A stretch of DNA of 64,000 nucleotides. Origin: Candidatus Poribacteria bacterium (lineage in GTDB: Bacteria; Poribacteria; WGA-4E; WGA-3G). The notes beneath the pieces were generated by a model. That model ran no database searches, was not told the origin of the DNA, and worked only from the letters and a program-made list of their open reading frames with translations. Of this stretch, positions 14,359 through 43,413 are shown piece by piece. The stretch is from positions 5,184,001 to 5,248,000 of the forward strand of contig OZ242029.1 in assembly GCA_965205015.1 (NCBI GenBank). Reading direction: 5' to 3'. Position 1 is the stretch's first letter. Each line of letters starts with the position of its first letter. A program made the position numbers and the translations under genes.

Positions 14359-14387
14359 TTGACAACATCCGTCTAAAGTATTAAGAT
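14359..14387 (+). promoter_or_regulatory. sigma70-type promoter
   Basis: TTGACA-17-TAAGAT. Confidence 0.6.
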
Positions 14388-14398
14388 AAGGGGTGAAT

Positions 14399-14518
14399 GG
14401 TAGCCTTCAACAACGGCACAGGGTTTTTGCTTGGGTATTTCTGCGAATTTCTTCAGATTTAAGGGACGCATTTGATAGTTCTAACGGACGTTGTTTAACC
14501 ACAAGGAATAACTAAAAA
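14399..14518 (+). repeat. Start-codon-abutting leader element, copy 1 (diverged)
   Basis: ggtagccttcaacaa...aaccacaaggaataactaaaaa-ATG aligns with the copies at 28300 and 31207. Confidence 0.65.
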
Positions 14519-14908
14519 ATGGCAGCAGAAAAAGGAACATGGAGACGGCACATCGTCAAAGGTTTAACAGTGCTCTTAATCCTCACGATATGTCTTGCCG
14601 TTTTGCAATGGTTTATCATCAAAGAATTATTTGGTTTCGGTGCCGATATGGTGAAGGATGCCCTGGTGCGGCAAGCCCCTGAAGGGGTGGATCGATATAA
14701 CATTGAGGCGACATTTGATCGGGTCAAAACAGCGGGTATGCAGCTGCCGTTCAGTTTCCTTACGGGAAAAATCAGTCTTCGCAAAATCAGAGCCGTTGGT
14801 AGATATGCGATAGAAGCGAATGCTGATGAATCTTGGGACGCCGAGGAGGTTAATACACTCCTGCGAATGATGAACGCCTCTGTCGGGGTTAAAGGAGGAA
14901 CCGAGTAA
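14519..14908 (+). CDS. Hypothetical membrane-anchored protein
   Basis: 129-aa ORF with N-terminal TM, downstream of a promoter. Confidence 0.7.
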   Translation: MAAEKGTWRRHIVKGLTVLLILTICLAVLQWFIIKELFGFGADMVKDALVRQAPEGVDRYNIEATFDRVKTAGMQLPFSFLTGKISLRKIRAVGRYAIEANADESWDAEEVNTLLRMMNASVGVKGGTE

Positions 14909-28016: not shown

Positions 28017-28217
28017 ATGGCATTCCGTCGCAGGCAGCGCTATCATAAAATAGAATCTTTCGATTACAAAGATGTTGATATGCTGCGAAAGTTTATTAAT
28101 GAACGTGGCAAGATTGTGAGTCGCCGAGTCACTGGACTATCGGCGAAGCAACAACGTATGGTAACACGGGCAGTCAAGCGTGCCCGTAGTATGGCACTAT
28201 TGCCGTTTACGCGATAG
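28017..28217 (+). CDS. rpsR: 30S ribosomal protein S18 (no Zn ligands)
   Basis: DYKDV...ERGKI...RRVTG...KRAR..ALLPF. Confidence 0.95.
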
Positions 28218-28299
28218 CGGTAGGGATTCAGACACGGACAATGGGTGTCCCTATGAAGGATGGATTTTTTTTCGAAAAATCCAAACTGAAAACTTTTCT

Positions 28300-28391
28300 A
28301 CCGTAGCCCGTAATGAAATGGAGGGCGGATCTCAGGAACGCACGTAAAATATCCAAATTCACGTCGTTTCTCCGCAAGGTATAATTAAAAA
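28300..28391 (+). repeat. Start-codon-abutting leader element, copy 2 (no cassette)
   Basis: accgtagcccgtaatgaaatggagggcggat...tctccgcaaggtataattaaaaa-ATG. Confidence 0.8.
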
Positions 28392-28838
28392 ATGGAAGTC
28401 ATTCTAAAAGAAAGTGTTGAAGGTCTCGGGCTACCGGGCGATGTACTGAAGGTTGCAGATGGCTACGCACGTAACTATCTGCTTCCCATGCAGTTAGCCG
28501 TGCATGCCACGGAACGAAACCGTCGACACTTAGAGCACCAGAAACGGGTCATTGATCATCAAGAGACGAAGAATAAAGAACGGGCACGTGAAATCGCCGG
28601 ACAGATGGCGGGGGTCACATGTACACTGAGCAGACGTGCTGGTGAAAATGATCGTCTCTTCGGGTCAGTTACCTCTATGGATATCGCAGAAAATTTACGA
28701 ACGCAGGGGTTCGATTTGGAACGACGGTTTTTTGAACTCGCAGAGCCGATTCGTGAACTCGGTGTCTTCATGGTACCTATCAAATTGTATACAGACGTTG
28801 TCGTCGAACTCCGCGTTGTCGTTGAGCGTGAAGCGTAA
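28392..28838 (+). CDS. rplI: 50S ribosomal protein L9
   Basis: MEVIL, GYARNYL, LFGSVT. Confidence 0.96.
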   Translation: MEVILKESVEGLGLPGDVLKVADGYARNYLLPMQLAVHATERNRRHLEHQKRVIDHQETKNKERAREIAGQMAGVTCTLSRRAGENDRLFGSVTSMDIAENLRTQGFDLERRFFELAEPIRELGVFMVPIKLYTDVVVELRVVVEREA

Positions 28839-30293: not shown

Positions 30294-31118
30294 ATGGAGC
30301 AGCAGCCCACTATATACGAAGCCCCGGGTGGTTTCCGTGATTTGGTTAAGATCCGGTTGCACAACGTGCTTTCCGAGATAGGACACGCCTTTACGCTCTT
30401 TTTTCAAACCCTTATCCAAATTTTTCGTCCTCCCTTTCAGTTTGATCTGTTAGTTAAGCAGTTGTTGTTGATCGGCTTCAATTCTTTAGCGGTTGTTATT
30501 GTCTCTGGGTTTTTCACGGGAATGGTGTTGGGCGTTCAGGGATATATTCAACTCAAACCTTATGCGGTGGAAGGCTCGGTGGCGAGATTTGTCTGTGTCT
30601 CAGTCGTGAAGGAACTCGGGCCAATGATTACTGCGTTTGTGCTTGCCGGACGTATCGGTGCCTCAATTACTGCTGAACTTTCAACGATGAAGGTTACGGA
30701 GCAAATTGACGCACTTGAAGTGATGGGCACAAATCCTGTCAAATATCTGGTTGTGCCGCGGTTTCTCGCCTGTTCTATGATGTTGCCGACGCTTACGATC
30801 TATTCGACGTTTGCGGGCATTGCTGGCGGTTTCGTCGCTGTTGTTACGCTATTTGATGTAAATGGTTCCTTCTTTCTCTTGGAAGTACAGAAGAATCTTT
30901 TTGTCGGAAGTGTTCTGATTAGTTTGATTAAAGCGACTTCCTTCGGAATGGCGATTGCTGCGGTCGGTTGCTACAAGGGCTTTAGTATCTCGACGGCGGG
31001 TGGAGCAGAGGGGGTTGGAATTGCTACAACTGGCTCTGCTGTAATCTCTCTTATTGCAATTCTCGTTTTAGATTTTGTCTTGAATCATATACTCTTTAAC
31101 ATTTTGGGGTTGGTATAA
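30294..31118 (+). CDS. mlaE: MlaE-family ABC permease
   Basis: KELGP, AGRIGA..TAELSTMKVTEQIDAL. Confidence 0.93.
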   Translation: MEQQPTIYEAPGGFRDLVKIRLHNVLSEIGHAFTLFFQTLIQIFRPPFQFDLLVKQLLLIGFNSLAVVIVSGFFTGMVLGVQGYIQLKPYAVEGSVARFVCVSVVKELGPMITAFVLAGRIGASITAELSTMKVTEQIDALEVMGTNPVKYLVVPRFLACSMMLPTLTIYSTFAGIAGGFVAVVTLFDVNGSFFLLEVQKNLFVGSVLISLIKATSFGMAIAAVGCYKGFSISTAGGAEGVGIATTGSAVISLIAILVLDFVLNHILFNILGLV

Positions 31119-31206: not shown

Positions 31207-31356
31207 ACCGTAGCCTGCAACAATACGCAGAAATACCCAAGCAATACGCAGAAATGCCCAAGCAAAAACACCCCAAGCAAAAACACGCAGGCGGATATGA
31301 GCAACGCCCGTCAAAGTCCAAACGCACGCTGTGTCTCCGCAAGGTAAAATTAAAAG
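31207..31356 (+). repeat. Start-codon-abutting leader element, copy 3 (with duplicated internal cassette)
   Basis: accgtagcctgcaacaat[...]gcaggcggat...tctccgcaaggtaaaattaaaag-ATG; 21-bp and 15-bp tandem duplications inside. Confidence 0.8.
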
Positions 31357-32136
31357 ATGATTTCAATTAGGAATATCACAAAAAATTTTGGGGGCAAAAG
31401 CGTTTTAAATGGGTTAAGCCTCGAAATTCCGAGCGGTGAGACGCTTGTGATTATGGGACAGAGTGGGTGTGGTAAGAGTGTACTCCTCAAGATTATTACT
31501 GGATTAATGTCTGCGGATTCCGGTGAAATTTGGTTTGATGGAACGGAAATATCAAGCCTAAAAGGCAAAAAAATAAATAACCTCCGCCGAAGGATTGGAA
31601 TGTTATTTCAATCTGCTGCGCTTTTTGATTCGATGACCGTCGCGGAGAACGTCGCTTTTATGCTCGATCAGCATACAGATCTCAACAAGCGAGAGGTGCG
31701 TAAGGTTGTTGACGAGAAGCTCGGTCTTGTGGATTTAGAAGGGGTCCAAGACTTGCGTCCTGCTGAATTGAGTGGCGGGATGCGAAAACGGGTGGGACTC
31801 GCACGCGCCTTGGCGTTTGATCCAGAGGTTATTCTCTACGATGAACCCACGACCGGGCTTGACCCGGTTACCTGTACCGAAATCAATCAACTTATTCGAG
31901 ATCTCCATGAGAGGTTGCAAGTCACCTCCGTTGTGGTTACACATGATATGCACAGTGCCTTCAGTGTCGCGACCCGAATGGCGATGATTCACGAAGGTCG
32001 GCAGGTCGCATACGGCAGGCCAGATGAAATTATCAACATCGACGATCCCATTTTGCAACAGTTCATTCTATTTGGAGCACCAGATCAGATTCTCAACATG
32101 GAAAATCCCATTTTGAAAAGGTATTTGGGGAGGTAG
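31357..32136 (+). CDS. mlaF: MlaF-family ABC ATPase
   Basis: GQSGCGKS, FQSAALFDS, LSGGMRKRV, YDEPTTGLDP. Confidence 0.93.
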   Translation: MISIRNITKNFGGKSVLNGLSLEIPSGETLVIMGQSGCGKSVLLKIITGLMSADSGEIWFDGTEISSLKGKKINNLRRRIGMLFQSAALFDSMTVAENVAFMLDQHTDLNKREVRKVVDEKLGLVDLEGVQDLRPAELSGGMRKRVGLARALAFDPEVILYDEPTTGLDPVTCTEINQLIRDLHERLQVTSVVVTHDMHSAFSVATRMAMIHEGRQVAYGRPDEIINIDDPILQQFILFGAPDQILNMENPILKRYLGR

Positions 32137-33703: not shown

Positions 33704-33724
33704 ACCGCAAGGTAAAATTAAAGA
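33704..33724 (+). repeat. Start-codon-abutting leader element, copy 4 (3' end only)
   Basis: accgcaaggtaaaattaaaga-ATG. Confidence 0.7.
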
Positions 33725-35086
33725 ATGGCACGAGAGAGACGCAAATTTGTCTGTCAAGAATGTGGATATACAACGCCAAAGACGCTCGGGCGGTGTCCGA
33801 GTTGTAGGAGTTGGCAGAGTTTCGCCGAGGAGGTAGAAACCCTCACGACCCAATCAAAACATCGTGATATCGGACAAGTGTCTCGTGAACCCGAACCCAT
33901 TTCGCAGGTTACAGCAAACGAAGTCGAGCGACATCTAACGGGAATGTTGGAGTTTGACAGAGTCCTGGGCGGTGGGATTGTGCCGGGGTCTGTTGTCCTT
34001 ATCGGTGGCGATCCCGGGATAGGCAAGTCTACGTTGTTACTACAAGCCGGTGATGCATTGAGTCGGAGTTATGGGGATGTGTTGTACGTTTCCGGCGAAG
34101 AATCTGTGAGCCAGACGAAACTCCGTGCAACTCGACTCGGTGTTGCGTCTGATACGCTCTATGTGCTGTGTGAAAACAATTTGGAGCAGATTGAGAAGTA
34201 TATTGAGGCGCGAGCACCGAAGGTCGTCATCGTCGATTCGATACAGACGGTTTATTTGTCGAGCATCCCATCTGCGCCTGGGAGTGTCACTCAGATTCGT
34301 GAATGTGCAGGGCATCTCCTAATTTGTGCAAAGAATCGGAATATTCCAGTATTTCTCGTTGGGCATGTGACAAAGGAAGGGGCACTCGCGGGACCGCGCG
34401 TATTAGAGCACATGGTGGATACTGTCCTCTATTTTGAAGGTGAACAACACCACATTTACCGCATTCTTCGAGCGATCAAAAATCGGTTCGGTTCCACGAA
34501 TGAGATCGGAATCTTTGAAATGCAAAGCACGGGTCTCGTGGATGTGATGAACCCGTCAGAACTCTTTTTAAGCAACAGAGAGGCAGCGGTTTCAGGGTCC
34601 GTTGTCGTTTCAAGTATAGAGGGGACCCGACCCTTGCTCATGGAAGTGCAGGCACTCGTCGTACCAACGCATTACGGAAACCCTCGCAATACGGCAGCTG
34701 GGGTGGACCGACACCGGATCGCTTTACTCATTGCGGTACTAAATAAAAGGGTAGGGATTAACGTCGGAGATTCTGATGTTTTTGTTAACGTTACGGGAGG
34801 ATTGCGCATTGATGAACCTGGGATAGACCTCGGCGTAATGATGGCAATATCCTCAAGTCATCGCGATCTCCCTGTAGATCGGAAGACTGTTGTGATCGGT
34901 GAGGTGGGGCTTGGTGGTGAAATTCGTCCGGTGACGCATGTTGAAAGACGAATCCGGGAAGCCGCAAAGTTAGGCTTCAGACGAGTGATCTTCCCGGAAT
35001 ATAACCGCAAAGGCTTGGAAATTGATGAGGACATTGAACTTATAGGTGTTAGTGACGTATATGACAGTCTCGGAACTTTGCTGTAA
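33725..35086 (+). CDS. radA: DNA repair protein RadA/Sms
   Basis: C4 Zn finger, GDPGIGKST, KNRFG. Confidence 0.97.
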   Translation: MARERRKFVCQECGYTTPKTLGRCPSCRSWQSFAEEVETLTTQSKHRDIGQVSREPEPISQVTANEVERHLTGMLEFDRVLGGGIVPGSVVLIGGDPGIGKSTLLLQAGDALSRSYGDVLYVSGEESVSQTKLRATRLGVASDTLYVLCENNLEQIEKYIEARAPKVVIVDSIQTVYLSSIPSAPGSVTQIRECAGHLLICAKNRNIPVFLVGHVTKEGALAGPRVLEHMVDTVLYFEGEQHHIYRILRAIKNRFGSTNEIGIFEMQSTGLVDVMNPSELFLSNREAAVSGSVVVSSIEGTRPLLMEVQALVVPTHYGNPRNTAAGVDRHRIALLIAVLNKRVGINVGDSDVFVNVTGGLRIDEPGIDLGVMMAISSSHRDLPVDRKTVVIGEVGLGGEIRPVTHVERRIREAAKLGFRRVIFPEYNRKGLEIDEDIELIGVSDVYDSLGTLL

Positions 35087-42690: not shown

Positions 42691-42825
42691 ACGTAAGCCC
42701 GTAATGAAATTAGGTTCTCCTTAAATGGCATACTTTATCTTTGCTTTACATTTGGAGGGCGGTTCTACGTGAAGAGACATCAACCTACAAATCACCTGAC
42801 CGAACCGCAAGGAAACATTAAAAAA
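42691..42825 (+). repeat. Leader element, copy 5, overlapping the tsaC 5' end
   Basis: gcccgtaatgaaat[42-bp insert]tggagggcgg...ccgcaaggaaacattaaaaaa. Confidence 0.7.
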
Positions 42826-43413
42826 GCCGTCCGATGTCTAAAGTCAGGCGGTATTGTCGCTATCCCCACCGATACGGTCTATGGGTTAGGTGCCGATCCA
42901 TTTAATCCAGCTGCCGTGCAAAAACTCTACACGGTGAAGGGACGACCGGATGGAAATCCGATTCCGCTCGTTCTCAGTTCTGTTTCGGATATCCACCGCT
43001 TCTCTCGAAACCTACCGGATTTCTTCTTCTATCTCACAGATCGATTTTGGCCCGGTGGTTTGACCATCGTTATTGAAAGCAAAGGTTTGCTGCCAGTGTT
43101 AACTGCTGGAGGGAATACTGTCGGGGTTCGGATTCCAGACAATCCACTGCTTTTGAAAATCCTCCAAGCGTTTGGTGGACCGATGGCAATAACAAGCGCG
43201 AATCTCTCTGGAGAACCGCCAGCCACCTCTATTGAAGAAATTGGTAGGGAACTCACCTCACGAATTGATATGATCGTCGATGGAGGGAAGACCCCAGGTC
43301 CCATCCCCTCTACCGTTTACGACATTTCCGTTTCGCCGCCACTTGTTCGACGACACGGCGTAATTTCAGAAGAAACACTCGCCAAGGAGTTCGCGTGCTA
43401 CAACAAGCATTAA
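42769..43413 (+). CDS. tsaC: L-threonylcarbamoyladenylate synthase (YrdC/Sua5 domain)
   Basis: PTDTVYGL, KGRP, FWPG, TSANLSG. Confidence 0.92.
   Translation: MKRHQPTNHLTEPQGNIKKAVRCLKSGGIVAIPTDTVYGLGADPFNPAAVQKLYTVKGRPDGNPIPLVLSSVSDIHRFSRNLPDFFFYLTDRFWPGGLTIVIESKGLLPVLTAGGNTVGVRIPDNPLLLKILQAFGGPMAITSANLSGEPPATSIEEIGRELTSRIDMIVDGGKTPGPIPSTVYDISVSPPLVRRHGVISEETLAKEFACYNKH

Follow-up and report, generated by a model that had tools for sequence, protein, structure and literature searches.

A dispersed, GTAG-tagged repeat at gene starts of sponge-associated Candidatus Poribacteria may act as a portable translation-start leader

The DNA analysed here is a 64,000-nucleotide (nt) stretch from a Candidatus Poribacteria bacterium (contig OZ242029.1, positions 5,184,001 to 5,248,000; hereafter, the window), in which the cluster rpsF, ssb, rpsR, rplI and dnaB carries an intergenic element of ~90 nt downstream of its S18 and S6 genes and directly upstream of rplI. 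An earlier note on this DNA, made from the letters alone, reported five homologous copies of the element (copies A through E; Table 1), all in the sense orientation and four of them ending directly at an ATG codon, and both points hold in the present analysis. The genes at which these four docked copies end are unrelated to one another and include the housekeeping genes rplI and radA. We find that the element belongs to a large, clade-restricted repeat family, and we propose, with about an even chance of being right, that it is a portable leader which provides the gene downstream with its translation-initiation region.

Searching the window with the 3′ motif CCGCAAGGWAWAATTAAA and allowing up to three mismatches yields five matches, all on the forward strand, where 0.13 are expected by chance; none of 100 shuffled windows reaches five. 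A covariance model (R1), built from copies of other genomes, finds exactly the same five copies at E ≤ 2.3e-4, again all on the forward strand, and the next match has an E value of 1. The four docked genes also have no canonical Shine-Dalgarno sequence apart from the AAGG of the element itself, as had been claimed, with no GGAG-type sequence between the 3′ module of the element and the ATG.

Table 1. Copies of the element and associated features, in window coordinates
Feature	Position	Strand	Remarks
Promoter-like TTGACA-17-TAAGAT	14359–14387	+	Ends 12 nt before the GTAG of copy A; 10 of 12 positions match; consensus match only
Copy A	14399–14518	+	Divergent, extra sequence in 5′ hairpin; ends at ATG 14519
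3′ module of copy A	14499–14516	+	2 mismatches; model match 14445–14516, 37.2 bits, E 5.4e-7
Open reading frame docked by copy A	14519–14908	+	129 residues; no Pfam family
Copy B	28303–28391	+	Full-length simple copy in the spacer between rpsR (28017–28217) and rplI; 84.9 bits, E 6.9e-19
Hairpin H1 of copy B	28306–28326	+	21-nt hairpin; its first G is the final letter of the GTAG tag
Promoter-like TTCACG-16-TATAAT inside copy B	28358–28385	+	Consensus scan
3′ module of copy B	28372–28389	+	CCGCAAGGTATAATTAAA, then AA, then ATG 28392
rplI (ribosomal protein L9), docked	28392–28838	+	Domain assignment
Copy C	31210–31356	+	Full, ~60 extra nt in H1 loop; arms 31213–31218 and 31287–31292; model match 31274–31354, 51.6 bits; ends at ATG 31357
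ABC-transporter ATPase gene (earlier label mlaF), docked	31357–32136	+	Domain assignment to ABC ATPase only
Copy D	33705–33724	+	3′ module only, 5′-truncated; 26.7 bits; ends at ATG 33725
radA-type gene, docked	33725–35086	+	RadA-type domains
Copy E	~42693–42828	+	Full, ~43-nt insert in H1 loop; model match 42740–42822, 43.6 bits; not docked on an ATG
Sua5/YrdC-type open reading frame	42769–43413	+	Sole in-frame start is GTG 42769, within copy E

Read from 5′ to 3′, a weakly conserved AAAC(C) flank is followed by the GTAG-tagged 21-nt hairpin H1, then by ~45 nt of variable core, and last by a 3′ module, CCGCAAGGWAWAATTAAAAA, that is almost invariant. The tag also occurs as ATAG, GCAG or CAAG, and its last G is the first paired base of H1, whose loop is of two main types, the AACGNAGTGGA type and the AACAACGG type, the latter in ~40% of copies. 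The module carries ~2 bits per position except at its two W positions and is followed by AA; within its hexamer, A at position 2 and T at position 6 are invariant, unlike positions 1 and 3. There is also a conserved CAC, at a place that in copy B is about that of a −35 box. The 8-mer CC-GCAA-GG is invariant across copies, and an extension of it to a longer hairpin (CCGCAAGG) was rejected because the flanking bases are anti-correlated with pairing (A..A 74 and T..T 71 versus A..T 48 and T..A 17).

This basic plan is frequently modified. The 3′ module is also duplicated in tandem with a 21-nt period, whole units form tandem arrays as well, and 16 of 49 copies in a 400-kb sample of one chromosome are truncated at the 5′ side and retain the 3′ end. 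Nested inserts of 40–70 nt are frequent in the apical loop of H1, including those of window copies A, C and E. Where measured individually, these inserts span ~43–68 nt and are of at least three sequence types (window positions 31219–31286 and 42701–42756; loci L207 and L210 at rplI; genome G003 versus G001). Orthologous copies differ in whether they carry such an insert, which hints at a second small element with this hairpin as its target.

The existence of H1 is supported by covariation in two data sets. One is an alignment of 63 simple copies, comprising copy B of the window and 62 of the 63 locus copies that passed a filter for a perfect 4-bp stem (L007 was dropped by eye); owing to this filter, pairing of the outer four positions in this set arises partly by construction. 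The other consists of 53 model matches from 764 kb of three genomes and has no stem filter, its model-based alignment leaning towards structure. In these 53 matches, the outer four pairs form in 50–52 of 51–52 cells, with exchanges among CG, UA and AU pairs; pair 4 is CG in 27 and UA in 24, and the apical pair is CG in 26 and UA in 15. None of 500 shuffles reaches the observed covariation score, and pairing falls from 76% to 26–47% when the partner is shifted by one to three columns. Thus, the 5′ stem does vary while staying paired, as the earlier note had read from the window copies. Furthermore, one pair is U.G in 22 of 51 of these matches and in 29 of the 63 aligned copies. Because a U.G pair on the sense strand corresponds to a C.A mismatch on the opposite strand, H1 matters on the sense strand, either as RNA or as single-stranded DNA.

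The repeat is a true dispersed family that is high-copy, strand-specific, intergenic and restricted to one clade among sponge-associated Candidatus Poribacteria. A scan of one genome per species places the exact 3′ motif at no fewer than 136 loci, at least; among the matches listed, 75 of 80 exact-motif loci have Poribacteria in their title, and in the few others (for example, L010 and L076) the element is not present upstream of the motif match. With the covariance model at E ≤ 0.01, there are 49 matches in 400 kb of one complete chromosome, or ~120 per Mb, which extrapolates to ~700 copies per 5.8-Mb genome; 7 of the 49 lie inside crudely called open reading frames (ORFs). In each of three complete chromosomes, all 150 candidates that were scored proved to be matches. 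A sample of 61 genomes from the phylum, which includes incomplete genomes and was searched with stricter filters, divides into 10 that are saturated with matches, 6 with one to four, and 45 with none; hence, the element marks one clade. No match to Rfam occurs in the whole window at the gathering score, and a search of positions 28250–28420 at E ≤ 10 gives a sole match that is irrelevant and lies outside the element. Likewise, we found no description of this element in open-access literature on Poribacteria repeats, covering titles and the beginnings of abstracts, with subscription journals and supplements outside the scope of that search, and no Poribacteria paper among the records listed for wider queries.

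The docking noticed in the window is a property of the family, and placement relative to genes is non-random in the larger samples as well. Among 153 instances of the 18-mer motif, 67 are followed by the start of a long ORF within 1–4 nt, with offsets of +1, +2, +3 and +4 in 6, 49, 10 and 2 cases, respectively; these starts are 61 ATG, 4 GTG and 2 TTG codons, and for 40 of the 153 instances the next 60 nt contain no start. In the 400-kb sample, whose matches were chosen independently of the exact motif, an ATG that opens at least 80 codons lies at +1 to +3 in 19 of 49 matches, compared with 0.94% of all positions on both strands (p about 5e-26). In 4 further matches, a GGAG-type Shine-Dalgarno sequence follows and then a start at 12–15 nt, and several of the undocked matches are units on the upstream side of a tandem array. 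With ORFs called crudely, 43 of the 49 matches are co-oriented with the next gene (a binomial test, run with 42 of 49, gives p 3.6e-7). Strand use is nearly equal in both halves of the sample (per 200-kb block, 11 forward with 11 reverse and 12 forward with 15 reverse), so that orientation tracks genes rather than replication; a replication strand bias was considered and is not seen in these two blocks.

Additional information comes from five complete genomes (G001 through G005) whose RadA proteins are 95–97% identical to that of the window. At orthologous gene starts, these genomes have no element at all, a single copy, copies in tandem, a truncated copy or an element of another family. At rplI, the element is present in the window and in G001, G003 and G004, with an extra nested H1 insert in G001 and G003; in G002 and G005 the same ATG is preceded instead by a spacer of 66 nt, in which AGGA lies 8 nt from the codon. 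The start of the ABC ATPase gene is preceded by one copy, by two tandem copies, by a copy that has a different insert and an additional module, or by a second family described below. At radA, the module alone in the window corresponds to two tandem copies with modules in three genomes and to the second family in two. Empty orthologous sites have an ordinary Shine-Dalgarno sequence, AGGA or AAGGA located 7–10 nt before the same ATG (rplI of G002 and G005; comparisons x17 and x18), and their last few bases are A-rich, with a run of A in two of the four sites examined. The comparison of filled and empty sites that the earlier note called for reveals such empty starts in relatives and yields just one clean pair, at a locus (L190) of G001 that is empty in G003 and G005 (comparison h8) and where the element is undocked; most spacers are wholly different, and several comparisons are unclean in this way at ~90% genome identity. 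The L190 element is also flanked by two copies, differing at 2 positions, of the last 23 nt of the upstream gene including its stop codon, an arrangement seen at no other locus.

The second family (family 2) is a 55-nt element composed of a covarying hairpin with the same loop motif as H1, followed by CCCAGGAGCCCATAGTTAAAA. Exact copies number 0, 3, 0, 2 and 10 in the five genomes (loci L213–L224; mlaF-like and radA loci of G002, G004 and G005), and at 8 of 12 loci its docking offset is +2. Neither the window nor the 400-kb sample contains it. Within one syntenic block, the density of the main family differs, with 27 copies in G001, 24 in G003 and 9 in G005. In the region at 292–486 kb of G005, the main family is ~3-fold sparser than in G001 and G003, and it is in G005 that family 2 is most frequent.

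What might such an element do at the start of a gene? We favor the view that it is a portable leader, transcribed as a 5′ untranslated region or as an intercistronic spacer, in which the 3′ module would serve as the initiation region of the docked gene. AAGG, or AAGGA in some copies, is complementary to the tail of the 16S rRNA (...CCUCCUUUCU), as read from the 3′ end of the 16S gene in the genome, and would be followed by an open, A/U-rich spacer of 11–12 nt. Indeed, in minimum-energy folds of four sense copies the stretch from AAGG to AUG is mostly or wholly unpaired, with short pairing on the AAGG end in two. Because docked copies offer no other candidate initiation region, the module is likely to be either a ribosome-binding region of a leadered mRNA or the −10 box for a leaderless one; in this sense, the portable initiation region proposed in the earlier note is supported, in that the 3′ end of docked copies is the sole candidate. 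H1 might aid propagation in the form of a single-stranded hairpin, shield the 5′ end of the RNA, or do both. Hairpins at the 5′ terminus protect bacterial mRNAs, and a promoter 5′ of H1 would place the hairpin near the end of the transcript. A −10-like TANNNT sequence lies 15–25 nt 5′ of H1 in 41 of 106 copies (39%), compared with a mean of 18 (~17%) in nine control windows. These flanks share only short recurrent −10-like words; a repeated promoter module upstream was discarded as an explanation, given that only 3 of 67 pairs from an all-versus-all BLAST of 97-nt flanks adjoin the element, all of them tandem or orthologous. A scan of copies A, B and C for consensus promoters gives matches at A, where a strong consensus site stands ahead of the copy, and at B, but none at C, and a −35 site within the element only in copy B. 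Transcription through the element is suggested by the position of copy B within the rpsF-ssb-rpsR-rplI cluster. A contig from an RNA library also joins the 3′ end of rpsR to at least 80 nt of an element (likeness set to 90), which is weak evidence because such libraries may contain DNA. Read depth peaks at the bins of the element in DNA runs as well as in RNA runs.

Several observations weigh against this portable-leader reading. A distance of 12 nt separates the AAGG from the ATG (11 nt if counted from where AGGA ends), whereas the last GGAG, GAGG or AGGA in 195 genes that lack the element mostly ends 6–8 nt before the ATG; given this distance, the module is at best a weak, distant Shine-Dalgarno sequence. 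The corresponding AGGAG of family 2 is even 15–16 nt from the ATG. Of the 195 genes, 92 have no such word at all, and initiation at docked copies may depend, as it may in those genes, on the A/U tract being open. Some 60% of copies are undocked, and 6 of 49 face away from the next called gene. Folding energies of the sense strand are ordinary (z −1.4 to +1.2), and a second stem, between the segment after H1 and that before the module, is not detected by a column-pair scan of the alignment and shows weak segment complementarity (−5.9 kcal/mol for own pairs versus −5.3 for swapped pairs, with 7 of 2000 permutations as good). Contigs assembled from two RNA runs cover the region at shares of just 0.13 and 0.05 and break at the repeat. 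Finally, a promoter-like TTCACG-16-TATAAT lies within copy B.

The main rival, a less probable explanation, is that the element is a portable promoter for leaderless mRNAs. Here the element would act as DNA, the WAWAAT of the module would be a −10 box, transcription would begin at or near the A of the docked ATG, and H1 would serve propagation only. This fits the invariance of hexamer positions 2 and 6 next to the variability of 1 and 3, the modal spacing at which the hexamer ends 6 nt before the ATG (6–7 nt when family 2, with its CATAGT 7 nt before the ATG, is counted), the tight grouping of offsets at +2, and the promoter called in copy B with its CAC conserved at about the −35 place; copies that are followed by GGAG and a start at 12–15 nt would then give short leaders. 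Yet position 1 of the hexamer is A in ~40% of copies (87 of 213 counted), and the words most like a −10 box dock least often: TATAAT in 16 of 51 and TAAAAT in 25 of 75, as opposed to AATAAT in 23 of 40 and AAAAAT in 22 of 47 among AAGGA copies (Fisher p 0.007, a comparison confounded by subfamily). There is no TG extension, and a −35 box accompanies only copy B of the three scanned, with none at copy C. Moreover, copy B sits inside a ribosomal-protein cluster, the RNA-library contig runs from rpsR into an element, the enrichment of −10-like boxes 5′ of H1 fits a start before the element, and the sense-specific U.G pairs of H1 require a single-stranded form. The leader and leaderless-promoter models are not mutually exclusive.

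[quoted passage not shown] We judge this improbable. The unequal copy densities in the syntenic block, the tandem arrays, copy-number differences, nested H1 inserts and 5′-truncated copies all are as expected of such DNA, and native sites are indeed A-rich (A at 0.41–0.51 at −5 to −2; AAAA within the last 9 nt of 39 of 195 genes), with A runs in two of four empty sites; the one clean filled/empty pair is also in keeping with insertion. Against this stand the near-invariance of the module when overall copy identity is 0.63 (detection depends partly on the module), and the fact that docked copies replace the sole ribosome-binding site of genes such as rplI, so that at these genes the module has to be functional; nor was any target duplication of 8 nt or more, terminal inverted repeat, linked transposase or set of near-identical dispersed copies found. 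Still less credible to us is a multi-copy cis-regulatory RNA, the other option named in the earlier note, in which the H1 loop (AACGNAGTGGA type), the module, or both would be bound by a single protein or RNA through which hundreds of genes are co-regulated post-transcriptionally. Two otherwise different families with covarying stems do have the loop motif in common, the structure is sense-strand specific, and the element is placed on the initiation region. But the downstream genes are unrelated, ~40% of copies have the other loop (AACAACGG type), Rfam gives no match and folding energies are ordinary; covariation backs the 5′ hairpin only, which leaves this idea weakly supported. Control of the CsrA type through GGA motifs was set aside, as none of the three genomes searched has a CsrA gene.

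How the element spread is a separate question. Locally, the element would multiply through the duplication in tandem of whole units and of its 21-nt module. Within one genome, dispersed copies have a median identity of 0.63 and the best dispersed pair reaches 0.85, with only tandem neighbors attaining 0.99 (16 copies). Judging by this divergence, dispersed copies within a genome are old. Beyond tandem arrays, 113 copies show no target duplication of 8 nt or more (repeats shared by the flanks equal the shuffled control), duplications shorter than 6 nt being beyond the resolution of the test. Terminal inverted repeats are lacking as well: by inspection, the two ends of the consensus, GTAGCC... 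and ...AATTAAA, are not complementary. The mobile character suggested in the earlier note is therefore borne out in part: presence and absence at orthologous starts, unequal density and one filled/empty pair support it, whereas the age of the copies and the lack of a general target duplication do not. Active targeting of translation starts is not borne out.

Nor is the linked HUH or RAYT transposase that the earlier note had thought worth seeking. Matches to Y1_Tnp (HUH) number 6, 3 and 4 in three genomes (13 in total), and 10 of these loci were examined; their 33.4 kb contain one model match to the element, no more than background, and one match to the H1 pattern. Seven Y1 genes were classed, four as IS200-type and three as RAYT-type (NF047646 above cut-off). 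The IS200-type genes examined have no element in their flanks. The three RAYT-class genes (L172, L174 and L175, in G001 and G002) have inverted REPs of a different sequence on their flanks, two of which are GTAG-tagged; a RAYT gene with its own inverted REPs is the classical REP-RAYT arrangement, here separate from the element studied. REP words similar to those flanking the RAYT genes also occur in spacers near radA of G005. H1 thus has the format of a GTAG REP without an assignable cognate enzyme, and action of an enzyme in trans is possible. Retroposition in the manner of short interspersed elements was considered because of the A-rich 3′ end, the 5′-truncated copies and the one long flanking duplication, and was ruled out by the lack of any RVT_1 reverse transcriptase match in three of three complete genomes, where control genomes responded, together with the lack of a general duplication.

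A more ambitious proposal, which we consider doubtful, is that the element and family 2 are mobile initiation-region cassettes. Such cassettes would integrate at the last bases before starts, replace the native ribosome-binding site, and be moved as single-stranded DNA via the GTAG hairpin by an HUH/RAYT-type enzyme acting in trans. If this were true, translation of ~6% of the genes of these symbionts (19 docked per ~320 called) would begin on DNA of mobile origin, and one and the same start would be contested between different elements.

Among described repeats, the closest kind appears to be that of the Neisseria REP2 and Borrelia IR repeats, and by analogy the Poribacteria element would work like them. 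According to the accessible text of a review (PMC3184786), both are intergenic, have no terminal inverted repeats, and lie in the sense orientation directly 5′ of unrelated ORFs, with 5′ untranslated sequence and a ribosome-binding-like end abutting the ATG, all of which they have in common with the element. The same text gives them two internal stem-loops near the 5′ end, where the Poribacteria element has H1 with strong support and a second stem with weak support, and a promoter inside the repeat, where the Poribacteria element has −10-like boxes enriched 5′ of H1 and consensus matches at copies A and B but not C. It calls them a unique class of unknown origin whose route of proliferation is an open question, and reports REP2 at 120–150 bp and 23–26 copies (PMC3184786). 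The earlier note did not recognize the element as a described family; there is no Rfam match to it, whereas a kind with the same layout does exist. Unlike REP2, the Poribacteria element measures ~90 nt, is present at ~700 copies per genome (~25-fold more) or ~15 per 100 genes, and is likened to REP2 by layout, not by sequence. It also differs in its GTAG-tagged, REP-like head, modular variants, nested inserts, occurrence inside operons as well, and different phylum, and in ~60% of copies the repeated unit does not include the ATG.

Other systems resemble the element in part. Like GTAG REPs and REPINs, as presented in the accessible text of a GTAG-REP paper (PMC3733652), it has a GTAG tag beside a short G+C-rich palindrome, hundreds of extragenic copies, a hairpin specific to one strand, small elements that insert into the hairpin, and RAYT genes in the same genomes. 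Most of those REPs lie downstream of ORFs, frequently paired in inverted orientation, and they flank the RAYT gene to which they belong (PMC3733652). In contrast, the hairpin here heads an oriented 90-nt unit upstream of ORFs, of which 43 of 49 face the next gene start; back-to-back pairs occur only in some divergent intergenic regions, and the RAYT genes examined are flanked by other REPs. A term search of the accessible text of that paper gives no mention of Poribacteria, start codons or ribosome-binding sites (PMC3733652). Correia elements and promoter-carrying MITEs are likewise small, high-copy repeats near gene 5′ ends that are able to change expression, but Correia elements have terminal inverted repeats and target duplication, both lacking here, and docking 1–3 nt from an ATG, as seen here, is not part of their description in the portion of the review available (PMC3184786). 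Putative mobile promoters also bring highly similar upstream regions before unrelated genes, and in the text available are defined by general upstream similarity (PMC3575422), whereas the Poribacteria element combines a defined hairpin with a 3′ end that is fixed at the start codon, and has far more copies per genome. IS200/IS605-type elements have subterminal hairpins at both ends, a short conserved flank and no target duplication; the element has a 5′ hairpin, no duplication, a semi-conserved AAAC(C) flank and no supported 3′ hairpin.

If the 3′ module is a working initiation region, then a single repeat family sets the translation, and perhaps the transcription, of hundreds of unrelated genes in an uncultivated sponge symbiont. 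This would be by far the largest known case of a rare kind of gene-start repeat, and a natural experiment on the wholesale exchange of ribosome-binding sites. In practical terms, the module could be used by gene callers and for start-codon prediction in Poribacteria genomes, the covariance model marks one clade of the phylum, and short-read assemblies break at the element.

Copy E relates to its gene in another manner. The Sua5/YrdC-type frame has no in-frame ATG 3′ of copy E, the ATG at 42834 being out of frame, and a start at GTG 42769 would mean that the core and 3′ module are read as ~22 N-terminal residues (42769–42836). Of the five further genomes examined, four keep the frame through the element open. 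In G005, the gene begins at a GTG directly 3′ of the module, and the window lineage is ~8 codons shorter there.

Two further features of the window deserve mention. The spacer between rpsR and copy B holds an A/T-rich hairpin, GGATTTTTTTT CG AAAAATCC, at 28266–28299, which has a weak, sub-threshold Rfam match to an unrelated family (E 2.8) and is not present in the genomes that lack the element at the rplI site. Lastly, tandem heptamers of the AACTGAC and GGCTGAC types are located just 5′ of starts at window positions 30294, 36946, 40357 and 52309, and their repeat number differs at orthologous loci among five related genomes.

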